Virus record (IMG/VR): IMGVR_UViG_2925677529_000001 | Span: 1,341-65,340 of that record | Direction: 5' to 3' (one strand) | Source of the DNA: a virus | Lineage: Duplodnaviria > Caudoviricetes | Length of the DNA: 64,000 nucleotides | Notes under the pieces: model-generated | Databases searched by the model: none | The model's input: the letters and a program-made list of their open reading frames with translations, nothing else | Told to the model about the DNA's origin: nothing | Shown here: positions 22,022-35,695 of the stretch, in pieces | How the letters are laid out: every line of letters starts with the position of its first letter | Numbering within the stretch: position 1 is the first letter of the stretch | Made by a program: the position numbers and the translations under genes

Positions 22022-22609
22022 CTACTTGCCCTTGCCAGCCTTGCCATTTGCGACCTCGGCGAGGGCCTCAGCTTCCGCCTTGGCGTGCTCCCCACCGATC
22101 TCCGCGATAGCGCCGATCAGCTCACCCCATGCCCCGGTGGTGAACTCCTCGTCGTCGGGATCGACCATGCGGTACATGACCCGCTCGTAGGTTTCCGGGG
22201 ACAGGTGCTTGGCGACGAACAGGTTGACCAGCCGGTCCTGGAACTCGAGGCTGTTGTGCCGGGCCGCGCCGAGCGCCTGCAGCGCAGCGCCTTTCGGAAC
22301 CCGGATGGCGAGCTCGTCGCCCTTGAACGGCAGCCAGGCGTGCTTCCACTCGGACTGATGGGTCCACTTCTCTTCGGCAGCCGGGTCGACGACCTCGGTG
22401 GAGCCGGGCACCGCGACCTCAGCAGCCGGGGCAACGACCTCCGGTTCAGGTGCAGCATTGGGGTCGGGGCTGGACTCAACGGTGATGACGTGCTCCGCCT
22501 CCGCCGCGGGCGCAGCGGGTTCAGGTGCAACAGTCGGCGCAACAACAGCGGCAACATCCGGCGTGACAGTCGTCGTGACAGTGGTGGTATCCGAGGCAGG
22601 ATTGGTCAT
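22022..22609 (-). CDS. Tail assembly chaperone (G-like)
   Basis: Directly upstream of the tape measure; acidic; no slippery site or T ORF follows. Confidence 0.75.
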   Translation of the reverse strand: MTNPASDTTTVTTTVTPDVAAVVAPTVAPEPAAPAAEAEHVITVESSPDPNAAPEPEVVAPAAEVAVPGSTEVVDPAAEEKWTHQSEWKHAWLPFKGDELAIRVPKGAALQALGAARHNSLEFQDRLVNLFVAKHLSPETYERVMYRMVDPDDEEFTTGAWGELIGAIAEIGGEHAKAEAEALAEVANGKAGKGK

Positions 22610-22638
22610 AGGCCGCATGTTGCTCAGCCAGGGTGCAC

Positions 22639-23043
22639 TCAGTGTTCCCGCTCCGCAACCCGCATACCGGCGTTCCGCAGGAACGGCCTGGCCTTCGTGC
22701 CCGGGTGTCGCACCAACTTCGCGAACACCGTGCGACCGCCGATCTGGAAACGCAACGCCTGCGCCTTACGTGGCCGAATCACATGCGGCCGGGAGCCCTC
22801 ATGGACGTACAGCGCATAATCGGCCTTCGCATGCACCGACCCCGCCACGGTGCGCGGCCCAGTGAAATGGATCTGCCCCTCACCAATCGTGCGCCCCAGG
22901 TTGCCCGTCCGGACCGGGACATCCACGCGCGCCTGGGTCGCCGTGCGGCGCTGCAGCGACGCCATACGCCGGCGTAGGAACGTGCGTGTCTGGTCATTGA
23001 GCTCGCGTTCATTGAGCTCAACGTGGGCGCTAACTCTCGCCAC
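22639..23043 (-). CDS. HK97 gp10-like neck/tail completion protein
   Basis: PVRTGNL..YALYVHEG..HPGTKARPFL. Confidence 0.8.
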   Translation of the reverse strand: MARVSAHVELNERELNDQTRTFLRRRMASLQRRTATQARVDVPVRTGNLGRTIGEGQIHFTGPRTVAGSVHAKADYALYVHEGSRPHVIRPRKAQALRFQIGGRTVFAKLVRHPGTKARPFLRNAGMRVAEREH

Positions 23044-23389
23044 TGGACTTGCTGCGCGTCCGGCGCGGCTTCGACTCCGCGCTGACCGGTTCGTCGACCA
23101 CGGCCACCGTGGGCTCCTCACCGCGGGTATCGCCCGGGAATTCTGAGATGCGCTCGTACGCGTCATCTTCGGCTGCCTCGGCAGACATCTGCGCCAGCAC
23201 CGCGCCGCGGTCCGGTTCGCCGTAGGCAACAGCATCGGGATCATCGAGGCTGCCCGCTACGACGATCGCACCGCCGCCGGCCACCAGCTTGCGGATCGTG
23301 TCCGTCACCTCGACCGTGGCCCGCTGACCACGCCCCAGCAGGTCGGTCGGCATGTACTGGCTGCCCTCAATCGTGACGCGATGTCCCAC
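23030..23389 (-). CDS. Hypothetical head-tail region protein
   Basis: GGGAG SD before GTG; packed in the operon. Confidence 0.55.
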   Translation of the reverse strand: MGHRVTIEGSQYMPTDLLGRGQRATVEVTDTIRKLVAGGGAIVVAGSLDDPDAVAYGEPDRGAVLAQMSAEAAEDDAYERISEFPGDTRGEEPTVAVVDEPVSAESKPRRTRSKSSGES

Positions 23390-28430: not shown

Positions 28431-30218
28431 CTACGGGGTCTCGGCCGGGGTGTTGCACGCCACGGTCTGGCGAGCCCCGATAGCACCGGAGATGCAGATC
28501 GGCAGCGTCACGAGGATCGACTGATCGCACCGCTTCCCCACCTGGAACGAGTCCTCGGTGAAGATGTGGGTGTACTGGTTGAGGACCAGTTGCTGCAGCG
28601 GGTACTGGACACCGAGGGTGATGATGTTGTTCAGCGTCCGGAACCACGTGCCGGCCGGGAACAGCATCACCTGGACGGTGGCCGGGTACACCAGGGTGGC
28701 CATATTGCCGGGCTGCCCGGAGCCGCGGGTCTGCCAATCCACCACGTACTGCAGGTAGATGTCGCGGACCGCCAGCCAGTTGTCGATCTCGGCGTTGGTG
28801 ACGGCCAGGGTGTCCTTGCCTTCACGCAACGCGAGGTCGGCGCGCAGCACCTCGCGGAACCACACTGGCGCAACACCTTCGATGGTGGCGTCACCCTTGA
28901 GGCCCTTGTTGTATCGCAGGTTCGCGGCCTGCAGAGCCAGCCCGTTCAGCACGGAGCTGGTCGCGCCCAACACCGAATCGGCCGGGACCACCTTCGCGGT
29001 GCCGGAACCGGCGACCATCTTGGCGATCGTCTTCTGCGAGACGCGGTGCTGGTGAGCGACCTGGATCTGCTCCAGCGCGTTCTCGATGGCCTCCGGCCAC
29101 GCCTGCCGCTGCAGGATGCCCGCCTTGGCGGCCCAACCGATCGCTTCCAGCCGCCACTCGATGAACTGATCCGGGCAGGGCAGTTCGATGATCGGCTTGA
29201 CCGCAGTCGGATCACCGTTGCCGTCAACGGCTTCCAGCTCGGTTTCGGTGAAGTGCCACACGTCGTCCAGCAGCGCCGACATGTCCGGGTTCACCGGGAC
29301 GCGCACACCGCCGCGGGAGAAGTCGAACGGGAAGTCTGGCAGCGAGATGAGATCCGACGCCGGGGGCACGTTGCAGAACGTGTAGATCTGCTCCGAGGGT
29401 GCGCACCAGCCACCGGCGGCGACGAGCGCCTGGGCGGAAACCTTGCCCTTGCCGGGGATCTCGCGACCCATCTGCTGGATCGCCTCGTACGCCTCATGCT
29501 CGTTCGCAGGCACGGGGCCCTCCGGCTGAGGCCGCGGCAAGCGAGCTACAGCCTGGGTGGCGAAGTCCTGCCCCTCCATGCTGACCTGGCCGGTGCGCTG
29601 ACGGCCAGTGTTCTGACCGGGGTTCACCGATGCGATCGACTGCGCAATCTCAGCGAAACCGACCTTGTCGTTGCCGAACTCGCCGTACTTCGGGGCCGAC
29701 GGCAGCAGTTCCCAACCCTTCGGCTTCTCACCGGTGGCTGCGGGGCCGGGCAGGTCGTTGTTGCCGTTGGTGGCACCCGCGAAGCTGACGGCCTTGCCGG
29801 CGGAAGCGGCGACAGCCTGGGACTGCTCGGCAGCCTCAACGGTGGCAGCTTCGGCCTCAGCCACGACGTCGGCCGCGGCCTCGTCGGTCCCGTCACCGTC
29901 AGTGTCGGAATCGGCGGCTTCGGCCTCAGCCTCGGCGGCCGGCTCGGCGTCGACGGGCTTCTTGGCGGTCCGTGCGAGCACCGAGTTCAGCTTGTCGGTC
30001 TGCGACTGGTCAGCAGCGGCAACAGCATCGCGCGCCTCGGTGACCTTGTCGTGAGCGTCGGCGAGCTCTTCGAACCGGGCGACGTCCTCAGGGGAGAATT
30101 CCTGGCCGGCGTCGTGCCGGGCCTGGAAGACGTTGATTTCCTTGGTGATCGCGTCGGCGTATTCGTCCAGCTCGGCGACGGTGGCGGGAAGCTGATCGGG
30201 CAGCTTGTCGAACTTCAC
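28431..30218 (-). CDS. Major capsid (hexamer) protein with N-terminal scaffold-like region
   Basis: LVAAGGWCAPSE..Y, RGG, WHFTE, IFTED; GAGGAG SD. Confidence 0.88.
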   Translation of the reverse strand: MKFDKLPDQLPATVAELDEYADAITKEINVFQARHDAGQEFSPEDVARFEELADAHDKVTEARDAVAAADQSQTDKLNSVLARTAKKPVDAEPAAEAEAEAADSDTDGDGTDEAAADVVAEAEAATVEAAEQSQAVAASAGKAVSFAGATNGNNDLPGPAATGEKPKGWELLPSAPKYGEFGNDKVGFAEIAQSIASVNPGQNTGRQRTGQVSMEGQDFATQAVARLPRPQPEGPVPANEHEAYEAIQQMGREIPGKGKVSAQALVAAGGWCAPSEQIYTFCNVPPASDLISLPDFPFDFSRGGVRVPVNPDMSALLDDVWHFTETELEAVDGNGDPTAVKPIIELPCPDQFIEWRLEAIGWAAKAGILQRQAWPEAIENALEQIQVAHQHRVSQKTIAKMVAGSGTAKVVPADSVLGATSSVLNGLALQAANLRYNKGLKGDATIEGVAPVWFREVLRADLALREGKDTLAVTNAEIDNWLAVRDIYLQYVVDWQTRGSGQPGNMATLVYPATVQVMLFPAGTWFRTLNNIITLGVQYPLQQLVLNQYTHIFTEDSFQVGKRCDQSILVTLPICISGAIGARQTVACNTPAETP

Positions 30219-30305
30219 TTCGTGCTCCTCGTTTTCTGAGTGAAACTCTCGGTCTGTCGATCGCTCCCCGGCACATAGCGCATGGCAGGAACTCTCTGGC
30301 GCAGG

Positions 30306-30326
30306 ACGGTAAGAGGGCACGGTGCA
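30306..30326 (-). promoter_or_regulatory. Late promoter of the capsid gene (TGCACC-GTGCCCTCT-TACCGT)
   Basis: Member of the repeated CACC-N9-TAnnnT family; sits just downstream of a terminator. Confidence 0.7.
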
Positions 30327-30394: not shown

Positions 30395-30580
30395 CTATGC
30401 GCCGCTGGTGAGTTGCAAGATGGTGCCGCCACCATTACGGCGCTGTTCGGCGACGGCCTCGATCTTCGTCAGGAACACCTTCACCTCACCGGTGGGTGAC
30501 GTGTACCGGTAGCCGGCGATCGTCGCACCGCTGCTCGTCTTACCGCCGGCACGGTTCCGGCCTCTACATGCGCAGCCCAC
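30395..30580 (-). CDS. Small basic protein preceding the capsid gene (MGCAC..GGGTI)
   Basis: Leaderless late promoter 7 nt upstream; own terminator. Confidence 0.75.
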   Translation of the reverse strand: MGCACRGRNRAGGKTSSGATIAGYRYTSPTGEVKVFLTKIEAVAEQRRNGGGTILQLTSGA

Positions 30581-30654
30581 GGGTAGGACGGTACGAACCG
30601 CGAGTGCATCAGGACGTATTGCAATCACTCGGACGTCAGGTAGAATCGAGCCTG

Positions 30655-30693
30655 CGGGACGTCCCCCCGTTTCACGGGGGATTGGCGTCCCGC
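30655..30693 (-). terminator. Hairpin immediately after the nuclease-domain stop
   Basis: GCGGGACG..TCCCCCGTG-AA-ACGGGGGGA-CGTCCCGC imperfect stem. Confidence 0.55.
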
Positions 30694-30695
30694 TA

Positions 30696-31292
30696 CTATT
30701 TTTGCAGGTCAATTGCGTTCAGTTGTCCCTGCGCCATCACCCACAGACCCTGCAGCCGATATTTTTCACGGCCAACGTTGAACTGCTCTAACGCTACGCG
30801 GATCTCATCTGTGAGTGGCGAGTCCTCAATATCAATGACGAACCGGTCTTTCACGACACCGTGCTTCGCTGCCCGCGAGGCGGCATCCACAATCCGGCCA
30901 TGAATCGATTGCGGGCGTGGTACGACGGTCTTCTGCTCGACCTCAACATTCCCGTTGGACCGCCAGATGAAATCGTTGGTCGGCTTAAACCCTGCAGTCG
31001 CTATCCACTCGGGGGTTTCCCCCACATCCAAGAACCGCTCAACGAACCGCACCTCGCCCGGCTCCAGCCGTTCGCCATTGAACTCCACCGGTAGCGCGCC
31101 CTGCCGCGCCTTCCAGTAAGCCCGGTAGACGTCTCGATCTGATGAGTTCGGCTCAGGCCCCAGCTCAGCTGGTCCGCCGGTGAACCGTAGCCGGTGACCG
31201 ATGCGCTTCTTACCACCGCCACCAACCGAAATCCACCTGCCGTCGGGGCCGCGCTTCTGCCTCGGGTTAAAGGCGAAGTCGGCGGTCAGGCT
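30696..31292 (-). CDS. CdiA-CT-like PD-(D/E)XK nuclease domain, probably expressed as a -1 frameshift extension of the MuF/protease protein
   Basis: Frame open from the slippery site to 30696; KPTNDF..EVEQK..FVIDI; linker FNPRQKRGPDGRWI. Confidence 0.65.
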   Translation of the reverse strand, partial: SLTADFAFNPRQKRGPDGRWISVGGGGKKRIGHRLRFTGGPAELGPEPNSSDRDVYRAYWKARQGALPVEFNGERLEPGEVRFVERFLDVGETPEWIATAGFKPTNDFIWRSNGNVEVEQKTVVPRPQSIHGRIVDAASRAAKHGVVKDRFVIDIEDSPLTDEIRVALEQFNVGREKYRLQGLWVMAQGQLNAIDLQK

Positions 31293-33787
31293 TTTGGGAG
31301 TGCCTCGATCAGGACGGCCATACGCTCAGTAGGAGTTGCGGGCCGGGGCGGCTCTCCGACAGCGGCGAACGCCCGCGCGAGCACCGCGTCACGGCGACGC
31401 GCCAACTCGGCCGCCTGCGCCGACTCCGCCAACGCCTCAGCCACAATCGCCTTGAAATCCGCGAGGGTCGGCACGTCGCCGCCAGGTTGCGACCGGGGCG
31501 ACGGACCGAGACTGGCGACCAGCGCAACGTCCCGGCCGTCCGGCCCCGTCACCGCACTGTAGATCGGGAACCCGGGGCTGTTGACCGCATGCGCGCCGAT
31601 CATGTCCAGACCCGCACCTGGGCAGTCACGCCAATCACCCGACAGTGGGGCGGTCATGCCCATCTGGAACGTCTCGGGATCCACGCCAGGCGCCGGCACG
31701 CCAGAGAACCAGATACCGTGCGCGTCCTCACCGACACGCACCAACCCGAACGCGGTGCACACATTGTCGTAGTGCGCCCGCGCCGTCGCGACCGTGACAC
31801 CGGGTGCGGTCGAGGCGTGGCCACCCTGAACCGTGAGCCGGCCAACGGACAGCTGCTTGCCGTCGTCGAGCATCACCTGGCTGGTGTGGAAATTCAGGTA
31901 CCCGTTGCGGTTCCGAGGAGTGACCTCGCTGCCGCCGCGAATCGTGTGCCCCCACTCAGCGAGATGCCCGTAGATTCGTCCGGTCTCGGCGTTCATCGTC
32001 GGCGCGGTGGCCCGCGTCAACTGAGGGTTCTCGAACAACGCCGGATCGTAGGTCTTGACGTGGGACTGGAAGTTCTCCGCGGCCGCCGCCACCAGCGCCC
32101 GGTCCCGCGCTTCTCGATCCGCGTTCAGGCTGATGCGCGTCTCACCGAACGCCGGGATCGCAACGATCGTCGTGGCCATCACCTTGGCCTTCGTGATCGT
32201 CCGGTAGATCGGCCGCGATGGGTCGAAATTCTCGTCGGTGACAACGGTTCCGTCGTCGTAGGTTTCGAACATCTCGAACTCGCCGCCGAGGTCCACCGAC
32301 GGGTTCGCGACACCGTGCGACATGAGGTCGAACGCCTTCGTCGCGTGTTCGTTGTTCAGCAGGTACCCCGAGGCCCGGACCTCACCGTCGGCGTAGGACA
32401 GGGATTCGATGACGCCGATGGTCACTGAATCGTCGTGGCCGCCCTTGGATTTCTCGCACCACTGCAACGGCAACGGTGTGTCCCGGAACGTCAGGTCGAT
32501 GTCGGTCGCGAGCATCCGCCGATCGTCGGTCGGGGTCCCGATGACCGCGAACAGCGCATCGGTGAACGTCAGATAGGTCTCAGCGTCCTCGGTGGCCATC
32601 TCATACTCCTGTTCACTCGGTGCGGCCCAGCCGCCGGACGCCACGCGCCCGATTCCGTCGTCGGTGTCGCGCGCACGAACATTCCCCGCGCCGGCGCGCC
32701 GCTCAATTTCCTCTGCCTGGGTGCGCCCGTTCCGATTGATCGCCACGCTGTCCCGGCCATTGAGCCGTTCGGTGTGCCGATCCACCTCGTCGGGCAGCTC
32801 CTCGTCGACGGCCAGGATCCCCATGCGGCACCGGCAGTTCTTCCACTCCGCCGGCGACGCCGTGGTGTCACCGGGGAACTGGAGCTGCTCACCACCGATC
32901 GTGAAAGCCGTAGCGAGCGGGACTCGTTGGCCATCCCCAGCCCAATGCGACGGGCGGGTCTTGCCGTCGAGCGTGCTGATCCACGTTTTCTGTAGCTCCT
33001 CGCCGGATTCGGCGGCCGACGCCTGCGCCGCAGCGAGCACCGCGTGGTTCATCACCCCGGCCGCCTGATAACCCTGCTGCTTGGCGACGTCGCGCATCTC
33101 CGGTGATGCAGCCTGCATCACCTCATCGGCCCTGACCCGCAACACCTCCGGTCTGTTCTCCGGCACGACCTCGATAGCGATGGACGGCTCCGCCGCTGGT
33201 GCGGGCGCAACATCCGGTGCCTGGGGAGCAGACGGTGCGGTCACCTCGCCGTCCAGTGCAGGTGGTGTCCGCTCCACCTCCATCGTCGAGTTGGCCAGCG
33301 CCGCCTCAACCTTCGCCCGCACTACGCTCGGCGTCGCCGCCACGAACTCACGCTTACTCGTCAGGAAGTCCGCCCGCGCCCGCGCCAGCACCGGTGTCGA
33401 ATCGACATAGGCGACCGCCTCGAGCACCTGCTTGCGGGACAACCCGATCAGCGACGCCAGCACGATCCCCAGCACCACTGTGTCCACGTCGGGCACCACA
33501 GCATCGCCCACCGTGCCGCCGAGCTCCACCGCGGTCTCGTACACTGCCAGCGCCCACAGGATCCCCAACCCCGCCACAATCACGGTGTCGGCGTGCTGAT
33601 CCCACGCGGACTGGGCCTGCGCGACCGCAGCCGGGTCCGGCGGCAGAGCCGATGCAGTCAGCGCGGGCAGTACCGCGGCCCGGGCCCCCGGGCACCAGCG
33701 GCGCAACGCCTCCGTATACAGATCGGAGATCGCCGACTCCGCTTCGATGGTGCGCGACAACGCCTCACCCTGACCAGGCCAAAACAC
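31286..33787 (-). CDS. MuF-like minor capsid protein + capsid maturation protease fusion
   Basis: KTWISTLDGKTRPSH..DGQRV..FPGD..NCRC (MuF); PLPLQW..H..SVD (protease); LSGDWR. Confidence 0.88.
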   Translation of the reverse strand: MFWPGQGEALSRTIEAESAISDLYTEALRRWCPGARAAVLPALTASALPPDPAAVAQAQSAWDQHADTVIVAGLGILWALAVYETAVELGGTVGDAVVPDVDTVVLGIVLASLIGLSRKQVLEAVAYVDSTPVLARARADFLTSKREFVAATPSVVRAKVEAALANSTMEVERTPPALDGEVTAPSAPQAPDVAPAPAAEPSIAIEVVPENRPEVLRVRADEVMQAASPEMRDVAKQQGYQAAGVMNHAVLAAAQASAAESGEELQKTWISTLDGKTRPSHWAGDGQRVPLATAFTIGGEQLQFPGDTTASPAEWKNCRCRMGILAVDEELPDEVDRHTERLNGRDSVAINRNGRTQAEEIERRAGAGNVRARDTDDGIGRVASGGWAAPSEQEYEMATEDAETYLTFTDALFAVIGTPTDDRRMLATDIDLTFRDTPLPLQWCEKSKGGHDDSVTIGVIESLSYADGEVRASGYLLNNEHATKAFDLMSHGVANPSVDLGGEFEMFETYDDGTVVTDENFDPSRPIYRTITKAKVMATTIVAIPAFGETRISLNADREARDRALVAAAAENFQSHVKTYDPALFENPQLTRATAPTMNAETGRIYGHLAEWGHTIRGGSEVTPRNRNGYLNFHTSQVMLDDGKQLSVGRLTVQGGHASTAPGVTVATARAHYDNVCTAFGLVRVGEDAHGIWFSGVPAPGVDPETFQMGMTAPLSGDWRDCPGAGLDMIGAHAVNSPGFPIYSAVTGPDGRDVALVASLGPSPRSQPGGDVPTLADFKAIVAEALAESAQAAELARRRDAVLARAFAAVGEPPRPATPTERMAVLIEALPKA
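31292..31298 (-). other. -1 programmed frameshift heptamer C_CCA_AAA
   Basis: CTC CCA AAA GCC TGA in the X_XXY_YYZ phase; stem-loop 6 nt downstream. Confidence 0.75.
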
Positions 33788-35695
33788 TCAGACCACCTGC
33801 CCGTCAACGACCTGCGCAGTCAACTCCCGCCGCGCGATCCGCTTCACCGCGGCCCGCACCCGCTTCGGATCCACACCGTGCGCAGCCGCGAACTCGTCAC
33901 TGAAAATCGCGTCCCACCCCTTGATCAACCCAGCGACCTGCTCATCAGTCACCGGATCCATCAGGCGATGCCATTCCCGCTTCGGCACACTGCGCAGCCG
34001 CGCGTACTGCGCCCGATCATTCGTCGTCACACGTCGATTACTCGCCAACTCCAACGCCCGACCGGCAAGCAGATCCACCACCGCCAGCTCGGTGTCGGTG
34101 CGGGTTGCGTGCTGCCCATCTCGGGCGTCGTCCTCGGTGTCAGGTTCCTCGCGGTCCTCCGCGCCCGGATCCTCGTCGACACCCTCACCCTGGCCGGGTG
34201 GCAACGCTGGTGTCGGCTCGGGGAAGTCGAGCGCCTGAATCGACTTGTCCAACAACGGCAGCAGATCCCGGATCAACGCCGGGTCCTGAGACACCCGATC
34301 CTGCGCCCATTCCTGCCAACCCTCGATGGTGTTGAAGTCGTACATATCGTCATCAGGCAGCCCGTACCTGCGTACCAGCGCGGCGGAGGTGATCGCGCCC
34401 TTCTCGTGCGCATCCTTCGCCTCGTCGGTCAGGTCCGGATCGGCGGTCAACTGGCTGGCGTCATACCAAAGGATGTATTTGTCCGGGTCGATGTTCTCGC
34501 CCTCAAGCACGTTGCGCAGCACGCTGTCGTAGATGGCTTGGCAGATCGTTTCCATCACCGGCGCGATGTGCAGCTGGACATCCTCTTCACCGATCTGACG
34601 GGCAGACCAGTGATTGGTCGAGTTACCCAGGCCGAGCAGTCGTTCCGGCGACATATCCAGCCCCATGGCCAGGCGGGCGATCGCATCGTTGCGCTTCCGG
34701 ATTTCGGTGTCGGTTACTTCCTTGCCGAACTCCAGATGCTGGATCTTGCTGATGTGCTCGCCCGGGGCCGCCGCGACGATTGGCACGTTGGACGCGGCGC
34801 TGTTCTCATTTTTGGCGCCCTCCTGGGACACCTGAATGATCAGCTTCTGGAGGCTGGCCGCGACCTTGCGCGGCGCGGCCGGCGCCGGAGTTCCGGGCTG
34901 GCCGGCGGCGGTCGGGGCCTGCGAATCCGGTAGCGACGCCTCCGACGGTACGAACAGGATGCCGTTGTTGAACAGTCGCGACTCGTCAGCGTTGGCGATT
35001 TTTCGGGTCGTCCGCACAATCTCCCGCAATGGGCCCAAGCACGCCCGGACAGGCGAATCCGGCTCCGCCGCATCCTCGGCGTCCGGGTTCCACACCCGGA
35101 ACATCGAGTCCCCATTGGCCGCGTCAAACTCGTGCTTCGTGCCGTCCGGCAGCTTGATCGTCACGCTGTTGCTGCGGGTGCCGAGCTCGATCTGCTTGCG
35201 GGTGACCGCGAACCACTTCTCCACCACACGCTTCCGCGCCCCGGTGCCCTCGGTGCGCATCAGGATGGCAACCCACAACTCACCCGGTACGGTCAGAACC
35301 TCGGCGATCCGTTTGACCAGTTGCGCTTGCCCCAGCGTGCCGCCGGCGATCTGGCGGACAATCTCCGCGACCCGCAAACCCTCTTTGTTGTCCGGATCGA
35401 TGCTGCCCGTCGGCCGCCCACTGTCCTCGTCGATCTCCGACGCAATCAGAGATGTTCGGGAGCACGAATTCGACCGCCACCGCACGTAATAGCCGAACTC
35501 GCCGACCTCGCGGTACATCTTCCACGCTTCGTCCTGCCAGTTGTCGCGCCGACCCGTCATGCTCGACGAGGCCCGGAAGATCTGGGCAGGGTCGGATACG
35601 GGGGCAGACGCAGCAGTCAAAGCGCGCGGCGCGGCCACAGATGCCGTCAGCGCGCCGCGGCGACGTCGAACGATGCGCAGGTCAGTGGCGGTCAC
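33788..35695 (-). CDS. Portal protein
   Basis: WQDEAW..VGE, NNGILFVP, RLAMGLD.SPE.LLG..NHW; position. Confidence 0.88.
   Translation of the reverse strand: MTATDLRIVRRRRGALTASVAAPRALTAASAPVSDPAQIFRASSSMTGRRDNWQDEAWKMYREVGEFGYYVRWRSNSCSRTSLIASEIDEDSGRPTGSIDPDNKEGLRVAEIVRQIAGGTLGQAQLVKRIAEVLTVPGELWVAILMRTEGTGARKRVVEKWFAVTRKQIELGTRSNSVTIKLPDGTKHEFDAANGDSMFRVWNPDAEDAAEPDSPVRACLGPLREIVRTTRKIANADESRLFNNGILFVPSEASLPDSQAPTAAGQPGTPAPAAPRKVAASLQKLIIQVSQEGAKNENSAASNVPIVAAAPGEHISKIQHLEFGKEVTDTEIRKRNDAIARLAMGLDMSPERLLGLGNSTNHWSARQIGEEDVQLHIAPVMETICQAIYDSVLRNVLEGENIDPDKYILWYDASQLTADPDLTDEAKDAHEKGAITSAALVRRYGLPDDDMYDFNTIEGWQEWAQDRVSQDPALIRDLLPLLDKSIQALDFPEPTPALPPGQGEGVDEDPGAEDREEPDTEDDARDGQHATRTDTELAVVDLLAGRALELASNRRVTTNDRAQYARLRSVPKREWHRLMDPVTDEQVAGLIKGWDAIFSDEFAAAHGVDPKRVRAAVKRIARRELTAQVVDGQVV

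Follow-up and report, generated by a model that had tools for sequence, protein, structure and literature searches.

How is a reading frame translated that opens, without a start codon, at the very end of a phage head gene? The question is raised by a mycobacterial prophage on a 6.38-Mb, single-contig, complete bacterial chromosome, part of which we analyzed as one stretch of 64,000 nucleotides (nt) (the window; positions 1,341 to 65,340 of IMG/VR virus record IMGVR_UViG_2925677529_000001). [quoted passage not shown] A first-pass annotation, made from the letters of the sequence, had proposed that a programmed −1 frameshift attaches this stretch, taken to be a CdiA-like nuclease domain, to a minority of the MuF-protease proteins. 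With moderate confidence, and on the strength of sequence comparison, we regard programmed −1 frameshifting as the best reading of the junction.

Overlapping frames at the end of the MuF-protease gene

The 3′ end of the MuF-protease gene reads CTC CCA AAA GCC TGA. Counted back from the stop codon (31288-31286), the codons CTC (31300-31298), CCA (31297-31295), and AAA (31294-31292) show that the heptamer C_CCA_AAA (31292 to 31298) fits the X_XXY_YYZ phase; it lies two codons ahead of the 0-frame stop. From 31292, the −1 frame is open for 198 codons (the extension), which begin SLTADFAFNPRQKRGPDGRW and end at TAG (30696 to 30698). Measured from stop to stop, this frame spans 209 residues, and its first ATG, GTG, or TTG is the GTG at 31088, residue 79 of the open frame and codon 69 counted from 31292; codons 1 to 68 contain none of the three start codons. 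A TGA nine codons before the heptamer closes the −1 frame upstream, and the 0 and −1 frames are therefore jointly open for only 13 codons. The junction has two features of a programmed frameshift site: an in-phase heptamer falls within the overlap of two frames, and the downstream frame codes for protein and lacks a start of its own. In these particulars (the end of the MuF-protease ORF, the coordinates and phase of the heptamer, and the 198-codon frame), the sequence reads exactly as the first-pass annotation had reported.

As a word, CCCAAAA is not enriched in the window (3 occurrences versus 3.31 expected). In the genome's 1,702 long ORFs, which offer 985,339 in-phase positions, heptamers of the form XXXYYYZ with Y = A or T occurred 350 times, which corresponds to an expectation of 0.0046 in the 13-codon overlap. 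For any XXXYYYZ the expectation was 0.025, a count that includes 188 artefacts from runs of N, and for in-phase CCCAAAA itself, found 6 times in the same 1,702 ORFs, it was 0.00008. Both slippery codons are minor codons of the protease gene (CCA, 6 of 55 proline codons; AAA, 3 of 16 lysine codons). Six nucleotides after the heptamer begins the imperfect stem-loop (31249 to 31285) that the first-pass annotation had also pointed out; a 45-nt segment (31289-31245), picked after the stem had been seen, has a folding energy of −17.2 kcal/mol (z = −3.03; 1 of 200 shuffles is as stable). No sequencing run was found with at least half of the sequence words of the stretch, and no RNA run contains it. 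Elsewhere in the window, no G/GT-type slip site or overlapping T frame was seen upstream of the tape measure gene (22022-23256).

Several lines of evidence bear on the 68 codons ahead of GTG 31088. GC content at third codon positions (GC3) in this stretch is highest in the −1 frame. Codons 1 to 44 (31161 to 31292) encode a glycine-rich linker with a NPRQKRGPDGRW motif, and AlphaFold2 assigned these residues a low to moderate predicted local distance difference test (pLDDT) score of 47 to 82. The linker (GGGG...R..FTGGPxxLGPEP) and a YWxxRQxAL motif at residues 59 to 67 align with proteins in which the same domain is fused in frame: in the phmmer search, the match begins at residue 24 of the extension for the in-frame fusions P0013 and P0005 and at residue 7 for P0051. 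A helix at residues 53 to 65 was modeled with a block-mean pLDDT of 94 to 96, and its R63 is kept in at least 90% of 49 aligned sequences. A tblastn search with the first 68 residues returned nothing significant in phages. On these sequence comparisons and the structural model, the stretch before GTG 31088 is protein coding. The motif NPxQxRxxxGRW is also in frame in P0051 but in no other homologue; among 159 proteins only the extension (P0001) and P0051 carry it, and no further occurrence was found in the window or the other examined loci. The idea that the motif is common in actinophage head proteins was therefore dropped as a general argument.

The predicted nuclease domain and its usual place in head proteins

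Among 1.84 billion representatives, phmmer found 280 homologues of the extension at E ≤ 1e-3. In an alignment of 49 sequences, W110 and E119 are invariant, and at least 90% of the sequences keep R63, E80, E85, D107, F108, K121, and K148; a set of 12 fusion proteins shows no variation at E80, E85, D107, E119, K121, or K148. Modeled by AlphaFold2 with this alignment, the extension reached a mean pLDDT of 89, with block means of 94 to 98 for residues 51 to 198 and 82 for residues 41 to 50. Helix 78-89, strands 94-96, 108-110, and 116-122, helix 127-142, and strand 150-154 (block-mean pLDDT, 96 to 98) form in the model the alpha-beta-beta-beta-alpha-beta core of the PD-(D/E)XK superfamily. The residues expected of such enzymes occupy the corresponding places: E85 belongs to the first helix, D107 precedes strand 2, and strand 3 contains E119-x-K121. 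Together with the structural matches below, these features delimit a PD-(D/E)XK nuclease-like domain at residues 45 to 198 of the −1 frame (30699 to 31160).

The first-pass annotation had likened this domain to CdiA-type nucleases, and structure comparison agrees. Against the PDB, Foldseek placed 4g6v_A, the CdiA-CT of Burkholderia pseudomallei, first (E = 6.4e-4, probability 1.00, template modeling score 0.60 on the target) and as the sole match below 1e-3. VIA-align, run independently of Foldseek on 48,161 representatives, also ranked 4g6v_A first (Z = 9.4, root mean square deviation 3.4 Å, 118 of 132 residues), with the runner-up at Z = 5.7 and the CdiA-CT of strain E479 (5j4a) at Z = 5.5. 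Model residues 67 to 196 make up the stretch aligned to CdiA-CT. Other structural matches were Hef/XPF/Mus81, restriction enzymes, and influenza PA-N. Sequence models gave no such assignment: the CdiA_C model of Pfam (PF18451) did not recognize the extension, Pfam-A as a whole returned no family at E ≤ 0.1 and NCBIfam none, and a profile of the family alignment (A1) searched against PDB sequences yielded no CdiA match and only a chance match at E = 0.75. Two PHROGs match residues 50 to 197, each at the C-terminal end of a longer profile, one of them labeled head maturation protease. In the ESM Atlas, a neighboring cluster carries CdiA_C (PF18451) in 23% of its members, which is a lead only. 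We conclude from alignment and model that the extension is a real, conserved domain, whose predicted PD-(D/E)XK fold is nearest to that of CdiA-CT of B. pseudomallei. Distant members at 27 to 28% identity also occur in Saccharibacteria metagenome-assembled genomes and metagenome contigs (L014, L015, L040, and L041), where one ends an 877-residue open frame and another is a free ORF of 172 residues.

A word-indexed search found six long homologues. All six are head proteins that end, in frame, with the domain; one is a MuF protein with an intein, and five have a VG15/MuF-like N terminus. Genomes of the bacterial family gave four good matches, in open frames of 403 to 960 residues; the two examined (L006 and L007) have a VG15 N-terminal domain and adjoin SPP1-type portal genes. 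In the genes following these two domains, no significant Pfam family was found (0 families for L006) and no immunity-like gene was recognized; a 260-residue ORF downstream in L007 had only sub-threshold matches of coiled-coil type and is possibly scaffold-like. A motif-pattern scan of IMG/VR returned 61 loci, many of which are near-identical copies, and in 60 the domain ends an open frame of 315 to 656 residues, one of these cut by the locus edge. Searches with P0016 and P0046 returned no viral locus. The domain thus shares a polypeptide with MuF in frame in P0005 to P0010 and in the 60 viral loci, and in the window only if a frameshift occurs. Free-standing members of 137 to 180 residues with canonical starts also exist (e.g., P0017, P0161, P0162, and P0164), and in all of them the start is upstream of the conserved helix. 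Of the first 13 loci to be examined, the window alone has a short frame (209 residues) with its first start codon within the conserved region. Judged by these sequences, the usual place of the domain is the C terminus of MuF-type head proteins.

Three observations on individual members are added here. P0051 (802 residues), a polyvalent head protein, carries, all in frame, a MuF domain, two HxT-type motifs in a stretch reminiscent in sequence of 2H phosphoesterases, and then NPxQxRxxxGRW and the nuclease domain. An intein (PF14890) is present in the MuF or MuF-protease proteins P0005, P0183, P0197, P0225, and P0270, of which P0005 also has the nuclease domain. In Mycolicibacter icosiumassiliensis (NZ_LT546166.1; L013, 3006-3914), a copy of the domain lies outside any recognizable head module, beside an ORF for a XerC-like recombinase, and the long open frame upstream of it lacks head-protein features.

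Conservation in close relatives and competing readings of the junction

The window's two proteins were singletons at 90% identity. Closer comparison came from Logan contigs of four isolates in four studies (X1, X2, X3, and X7), which are about 89 to 91% identical to the window and span the junction. Gaps totaled 3 in X2, X3, and X7 and 4 in X1. Each contig has one 3-nt insertion, at 31283/84 or 31277/78, and X1 has an additional 1-nt gap at 30584, outside genes. Within the extension, indels in the four contigs consist of whole codons and fall at codon boundaries of the −1 frame; the relation of the 0 and −1 frames is therefore kept in 4 of 4 contigs. Across codons 72 to 198, among the substitutions listed, X1 differs from the window by at least 13 synonymously and at least 10 nonsynonymously changed codons (nonsynonymous-to-synonymous ratio, pN/pS = 0.24, P = 0.0009), with no nonsense change; the terminal TAG is TAA in all four contigs. 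By this comparison, the domain is under purifying selection. Eight related protease clusters and the window protein end ...LIEALPK[A/D]; seven of the clusters are 90 to 93% identical to it over residues 560 to 833 and the eighth (P0214, on the contig of X7) is 58% identical. Over the heptamer, it is the encoded residues L-P-K that this comparison shows to be conserved. The relatives inspected outside this clade have other C termini, many of them ...LLER[AV] and none with LPK. A related domain gene (P0160; 92% identical, five members, one on the contig of X1) is called as 130 residues, and no call of about 198 residues for the domain was found in the protein collection.

No other nucleotide search found a copy that shares the junction. 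The genomes of the family gave only distant matches (6 of 400). Two genus searches left the junction and domain unmatched in 399 genomes (short, marginal matches at E ≤ 0.001) and gave 0 of 389 at E ≤ 1e-30, and 0 of 400 genomes of relatives matched at E ≤ 1e-10. The distant loci amounted to three genome contigs, four viral contigs (with P0001 as the query), and three metagenome contigs, and no record of the phage collection covered the extension.

Several points weigh against frameshifting. The shared L-P-K is weak evidence for the heptamer because the clade shows no variation at 39 of the last 45 residues, and the pN/pS ratio derives from a list of substitutions that may be incomplete. The 92 nt after the heptamer fold no more stably than shuffled sequence (z = +0.46, 132 of 200), and the 3-nt insertions of the relatives sit in the 5′ arm of the stem-loop. 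Heptamers with A at both Y and Z are not the most efficient in bacteria. The first-pass annotation had looked to homologous protease genes for a conserved heptamer followed by variable domains; the clade keeps the frame relation (four contigs) and L-P-K (eight of eight clusters). The 60 other viral loci all have the domain unsplit, which means that frameshifting is no general habit of the domain family. Finally, the second codon of the −1 frame, CTG (31289-31287), overlaps the protease stop as CTGA, and this overlap offers a route without frameshifting that the first-pass annotation overlooked.

By that route, ribosomes terminating at the protease stop would reinitiate at the CTG and make a free protein of about 197 residues, linker plus nuclease, unfused to the protease. 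A 4-nt start/stop overlap always sets the downstream gene in the −1 frame, relatives couple the gene at this position through the same geometry (GTGA in Dori, ATGA in prophi88-1), free-standing family members with their own starts exist (P0017, P0161, P0162, and P0164), and reinitiation would account equally well for the coding signal from codon 3 on. CTG is, however, a very rare bacterial initiator; the closest Shine-Dalgarno (SD)-like sequence, GAGG, is poorly placed 13 nt upstream; the hairpin would cover the start; and the in-phase heptamer, with 0.0046 expected, would become a coincidence. A free protein with a 45-residue, disordered, glycine-rich leader copied from fusion linkers would also be odd, and since no relative has a call of about 198 residues, none seems to have a canonical start there. 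We therefore consider reinitiation unlikely. It is likewise improbable, in our judgment, that the annotated 130-residue ORF is a real gene that starts at GTG 31088 and encodes a free nuclease core, with the upstream stretch a recent relic of the fusion gene that gave rise to the cassette. Gene callers did choose this start in the window and in the five-member cluster P0160, P0042 and P0112 start at the same position, and GC content falls from 0.66 to 0.57 near the GTG. The stretch aligned to CdiA-CT nearly coincides with the ORF, which we also count against frameshifting, and 68 codons would be free of stops by chance with a probability of about 0.19, as estimated from base composition. Such a gene would nevertheless lack a good SD, and its product would lack helix 53-65, which is conserved and is present in the free-standing members; the upstream signals would also go unexplained. 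The upstream indels of the four relatives are two different 3-nt insertions, both at codon boundaries of the −1 frame, and the coincidence of the heptamer applies here too.

A third account is that a 1-nt deletion in the A run split an ancestral in-frame gene, and that the domain is no longer made. One more A in the AAAA run would rejoin a single frame, in-frame fusion is the rule elsewhere, and homopolymers are indel hotspots. This account is very unlikely in view of the selection on codons 72 to 198, the retention of a stop (TAG to TAA) and of the motif residues, and the restriction of indels to 3 nt; moreover, relatives have the native protease C terminus at the same position, so the stop is the normal end of the protease. 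Its variant, an error of assembly, is excluded, because the same frame relation recurs in four contigs from four studies and eight clusters share the stop. A small share of our confidence is given to none of these readings.

Programmed frameshifting explains jointly the missing start, the coding signal up to the junction, and a heptamer placed exactly where the protease natively ends, as well as the local hairpin, the usual fused architecture, and a split state conserved under purifying selection. The first-pass proposal of a frameshift-attached nuclease is thereby supported in part, by the reality of the domain, its usual place at the MuF C terminus, the absence of a start, the kept 0/−1 relation, and the selection on the domain. 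Its suggestions of a tRNase and of release by the fused protease stand as hypotheses. From the sequence and the structural model, we infer the slip and its efficiency, packaging and delivery, and the nuclease activity and its substrate, as follows. A cassette of flexible linker, PD-(D/E)XK domain, and hairpin would have recombined into the 3′ end of the MuF-protease gene in the −1 frame. Most ribosomes would stop at the TGA and release the 833-residue protein with its native C terminus. A minority would slip one base back on C_CCA_AAA, with tRNA-Pro re-pairing from CCA to CCC and tRNA-Lys from AAA to AAA, probably aided by the stem-loop 6 nt downstream. These ribosomes would read 198 further codons and yield a protein of about 1,030 residues comprising MuF, protease, linker, and nuclease. 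Because MuF-type proteins are internal head proteins, we propose that the nuclease would be packaged at low copy in the head, from which it could enter the next host along with the DNA.

The head module, the insertion, and related systems

The MuF-protease gene lies between a portal gene (33788 to 35695) and a large capsid gene (28431 to 30320), both identified from the ORF list and profile searches. Its own assignment rests on the ORF list, a match to phrog_859 (E = 1.5e-274), and similarity to Dori gp8. Several MuF PHROGs match it at E = 1e-11 to 1e-22; in Pfam, Phage_Mu_F (PF04233) scores E = 1.9e-5 at 25.8 bits, under the 29.6 cutoff, and Peptidase_S78 E = 0.035. The protein thus has the form of a MuF toxin-type carrier, a MuF domain on a prophage head protein whose gene stands between portal and capsid. 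In the phage collection, the nearest phages are Mycobacterium phages Dori, Mao1, Mask, and Sejanus and several Mycobacterium abscessus prophages, which match the protease part only (76 to 78% identity). Dori gp8, annotated as "capsid maturation protease and MuF-like fusion protein," is 76% identical over 1,065 nt.

Dori gp8-gp9 share with the window the order of portal, protease fusion, DUF7196 gene, and capsid. In Dori, prophi88-1, and Sejanus, the small DUF7196 gene directly follows the protease with a 4-nt overlap (the GTGA of Dori and the ATGA of prophi88-1), and the capsid gene comes next. Unlike the window, neither Dori nor the M. abscessus prophages carry a nuclease cassette, and the C termini of their proteases (...LLERV or similar) lack the LPK tail. 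Since such relatives lack the intervening DNA, the 705 nt between the protease stop and the DUF7196 gene (30581 to 31285) are an insertion. The GC content of its domain part is 0.57 versus about 0.66 around it; for the ORF at 30696 to 31088, which covers residues 69 to 198 of the −1 frame only, GC is 0.572 and GC3 0.677, compared with GC3 values of 0.81 to 0.86 in the protease, portal, and capsid genes. Directly 3′ of the domain stop is a strong hairpin (30649 to 30697; −31 kcal/mol, z = −4.32, equaled by 0 of 200 shuffles), with terminator-like matches on the plus strand, that seems to have arrived together with the cassette. The weaker GC bias of the orphan ORF, the want of a good SD upstream of its GTG, and the hairpin behind it had all been described in the first-pass annotation and stand as described. 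The hairpin lies inside the head operon, and its T run is on the plus strand only, which would make it a terminator without a U tract on the gene strand.

After the domain stop come the hairpin and 115 nt and then the DUF7196 gene (30395 to 30580; 61 residues from GTG 30580), a homologue of Dori gp9 (PF23826, E = 1.1e-14; phrog_2069). The insertion places this gene 705 nt from its usual overlap with the protease stop, and no SD is evident for it here. No immunity gene was recognized next to the domain in a search limited to the adjoining genes, and DUF7196 is not a candidate, because relatives without the nuclease module carry it too. Among relatives of the MuF-protease, 13 of 119 bear another in-frame C-terminal extension, of 73 to 87 residues, after the same C terminus; the C terminus of the protease therefore accepts added modules and is a hotspot for them. 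Carriers of the 73- to 87-residue extension include P0174 to P0176, P0179, P0181, P0184, and P0186, and several end ...NLHRE..G.NPG.H.

To our knowledge, MuF-type head proteins are known as carriers of toxins or effectors always as plain fusions. The MuF polymorphic toxins of temperate phages are described as in-frame fusions, mostly to nucleases, with a small putative immunity ORF behind 89.4% of them (Jamet et al. 2017, PMC5576092), so the first-pass statement that MuF proteins carry polymorphic C-terminal toxins is in print. They resemble the present case in placing a variable C-terminal effector domain on a MuF-type head protein of a prophage (PMC5576092). They differ in that the carrier here is a MuF-protease fusion, the domain is in another frame and would need recoding, and DUF7196 takes the place of a small immunity ORF. 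That paper does not contain the word "frameshift"; in its discussion of highly toxic MuFs, it names the tRNA nuclease domain of CdiA-2 from B. pseudomallei 1026b (cd13442) among the nucleases of other polymorphic-toxin families, and it is our source for the tRNase activity of 4g6v (PMC5576092). CdiA-CT (4g6v) is the best structural match to the modeled domain by two methods. The two share only 10 to 12% sequence identity, the proposed delivery is by a phage head and not by a two-partner secretion filament, and no CdiI-like gene follows the domain here. MuF-fused effectors, including 2H and RNase domains, have been described as virion delivered (Iyer et al., PMC5512222), and MuF-protease and in-frame MuF-VIP2 fusions are reported for Microbacterium phages (PMC7302621). 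The one printed hint found of MuF and toxin genes joined by a frameshift is a single sentence in the PRFect paper, which lists MuF-like/VIP2 gene pairs among "false positives" as possible frameshift fusions (PMC10885494). Those pairs are likewise adjacent genes in different frames that elsewhere form one fusion, with a MuF carrier and a toxin-like enzyme as cargo; the remark comes without a site, conservation, or structure, whereas here the cargo is a nuclease and the carrier includes the protease. No paper was found on a frameshift-attached MuF or protease toxin, in a search that left subscription journals mostly outside its reach.

The heptamer CCCAAAA is reportedly that of Lactobacillus phage A2 itself, as the first-pass annotation had stated for the head and tail genes of that phage. 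This claim was checked indirectly: for the major head gene of the A2-related phage BH1 and of phages of the Lactobacillus casei group, PMC6950654 gives CCCAAAA as the slippery sequence. That frameshifting can extend capsid and tail proteins is well known; the minor, longer product joins the virion (Atkins et al. 2016, PMC5009743). The A2 head and tail genes, the T3 capsid, and lambda G/GT share with the present junction a heptamer close to where a structural gene ends and a stem-loop downstream, and they make a minor longer product, as is proposed here. Their extensions, unlike the one proposed here, are Ig-like or assembly extensions on capsid and tail proteins and not enzymes or toxins. The novelty of the locus therefore lies in a new combination of a known carrier, a known type of cargo, and a known recoding signal.

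These comparisons raise a broader reading, which we put forward tentatively and hold to be possible rather than probable: that the C terminus of the protease is a docking point for swappable effectors, with the cargo in this clade of mycobacterial prophages kept out of frame and the heptamer setting its dose. If so, a few protease copies would carry a CdiA-CT-like nuclease to the next host, and no immunity gene would be needed. If a frameshift adds the nuclease, recoding would control the dosage of an enzyme that endangers the cell in which it is made and is of use in the following one, which would account for the missing adjoining immunity gene. Such cargo appears in gene calls as short orphan ORFs, at 130 residues here in every relative in the protein collection, and the annotated "hypothetical protein" of that length would be a truncated version without the conserved helix. 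If the frameshift is real, the few extensions so far known to be added to virion proteins by frameshifting would come to include an enzyme cargo, and, should the docking-point reading hold as well, virion effectors dosed by frameshifting may be a hidden class in actinobacteriophage genomes.

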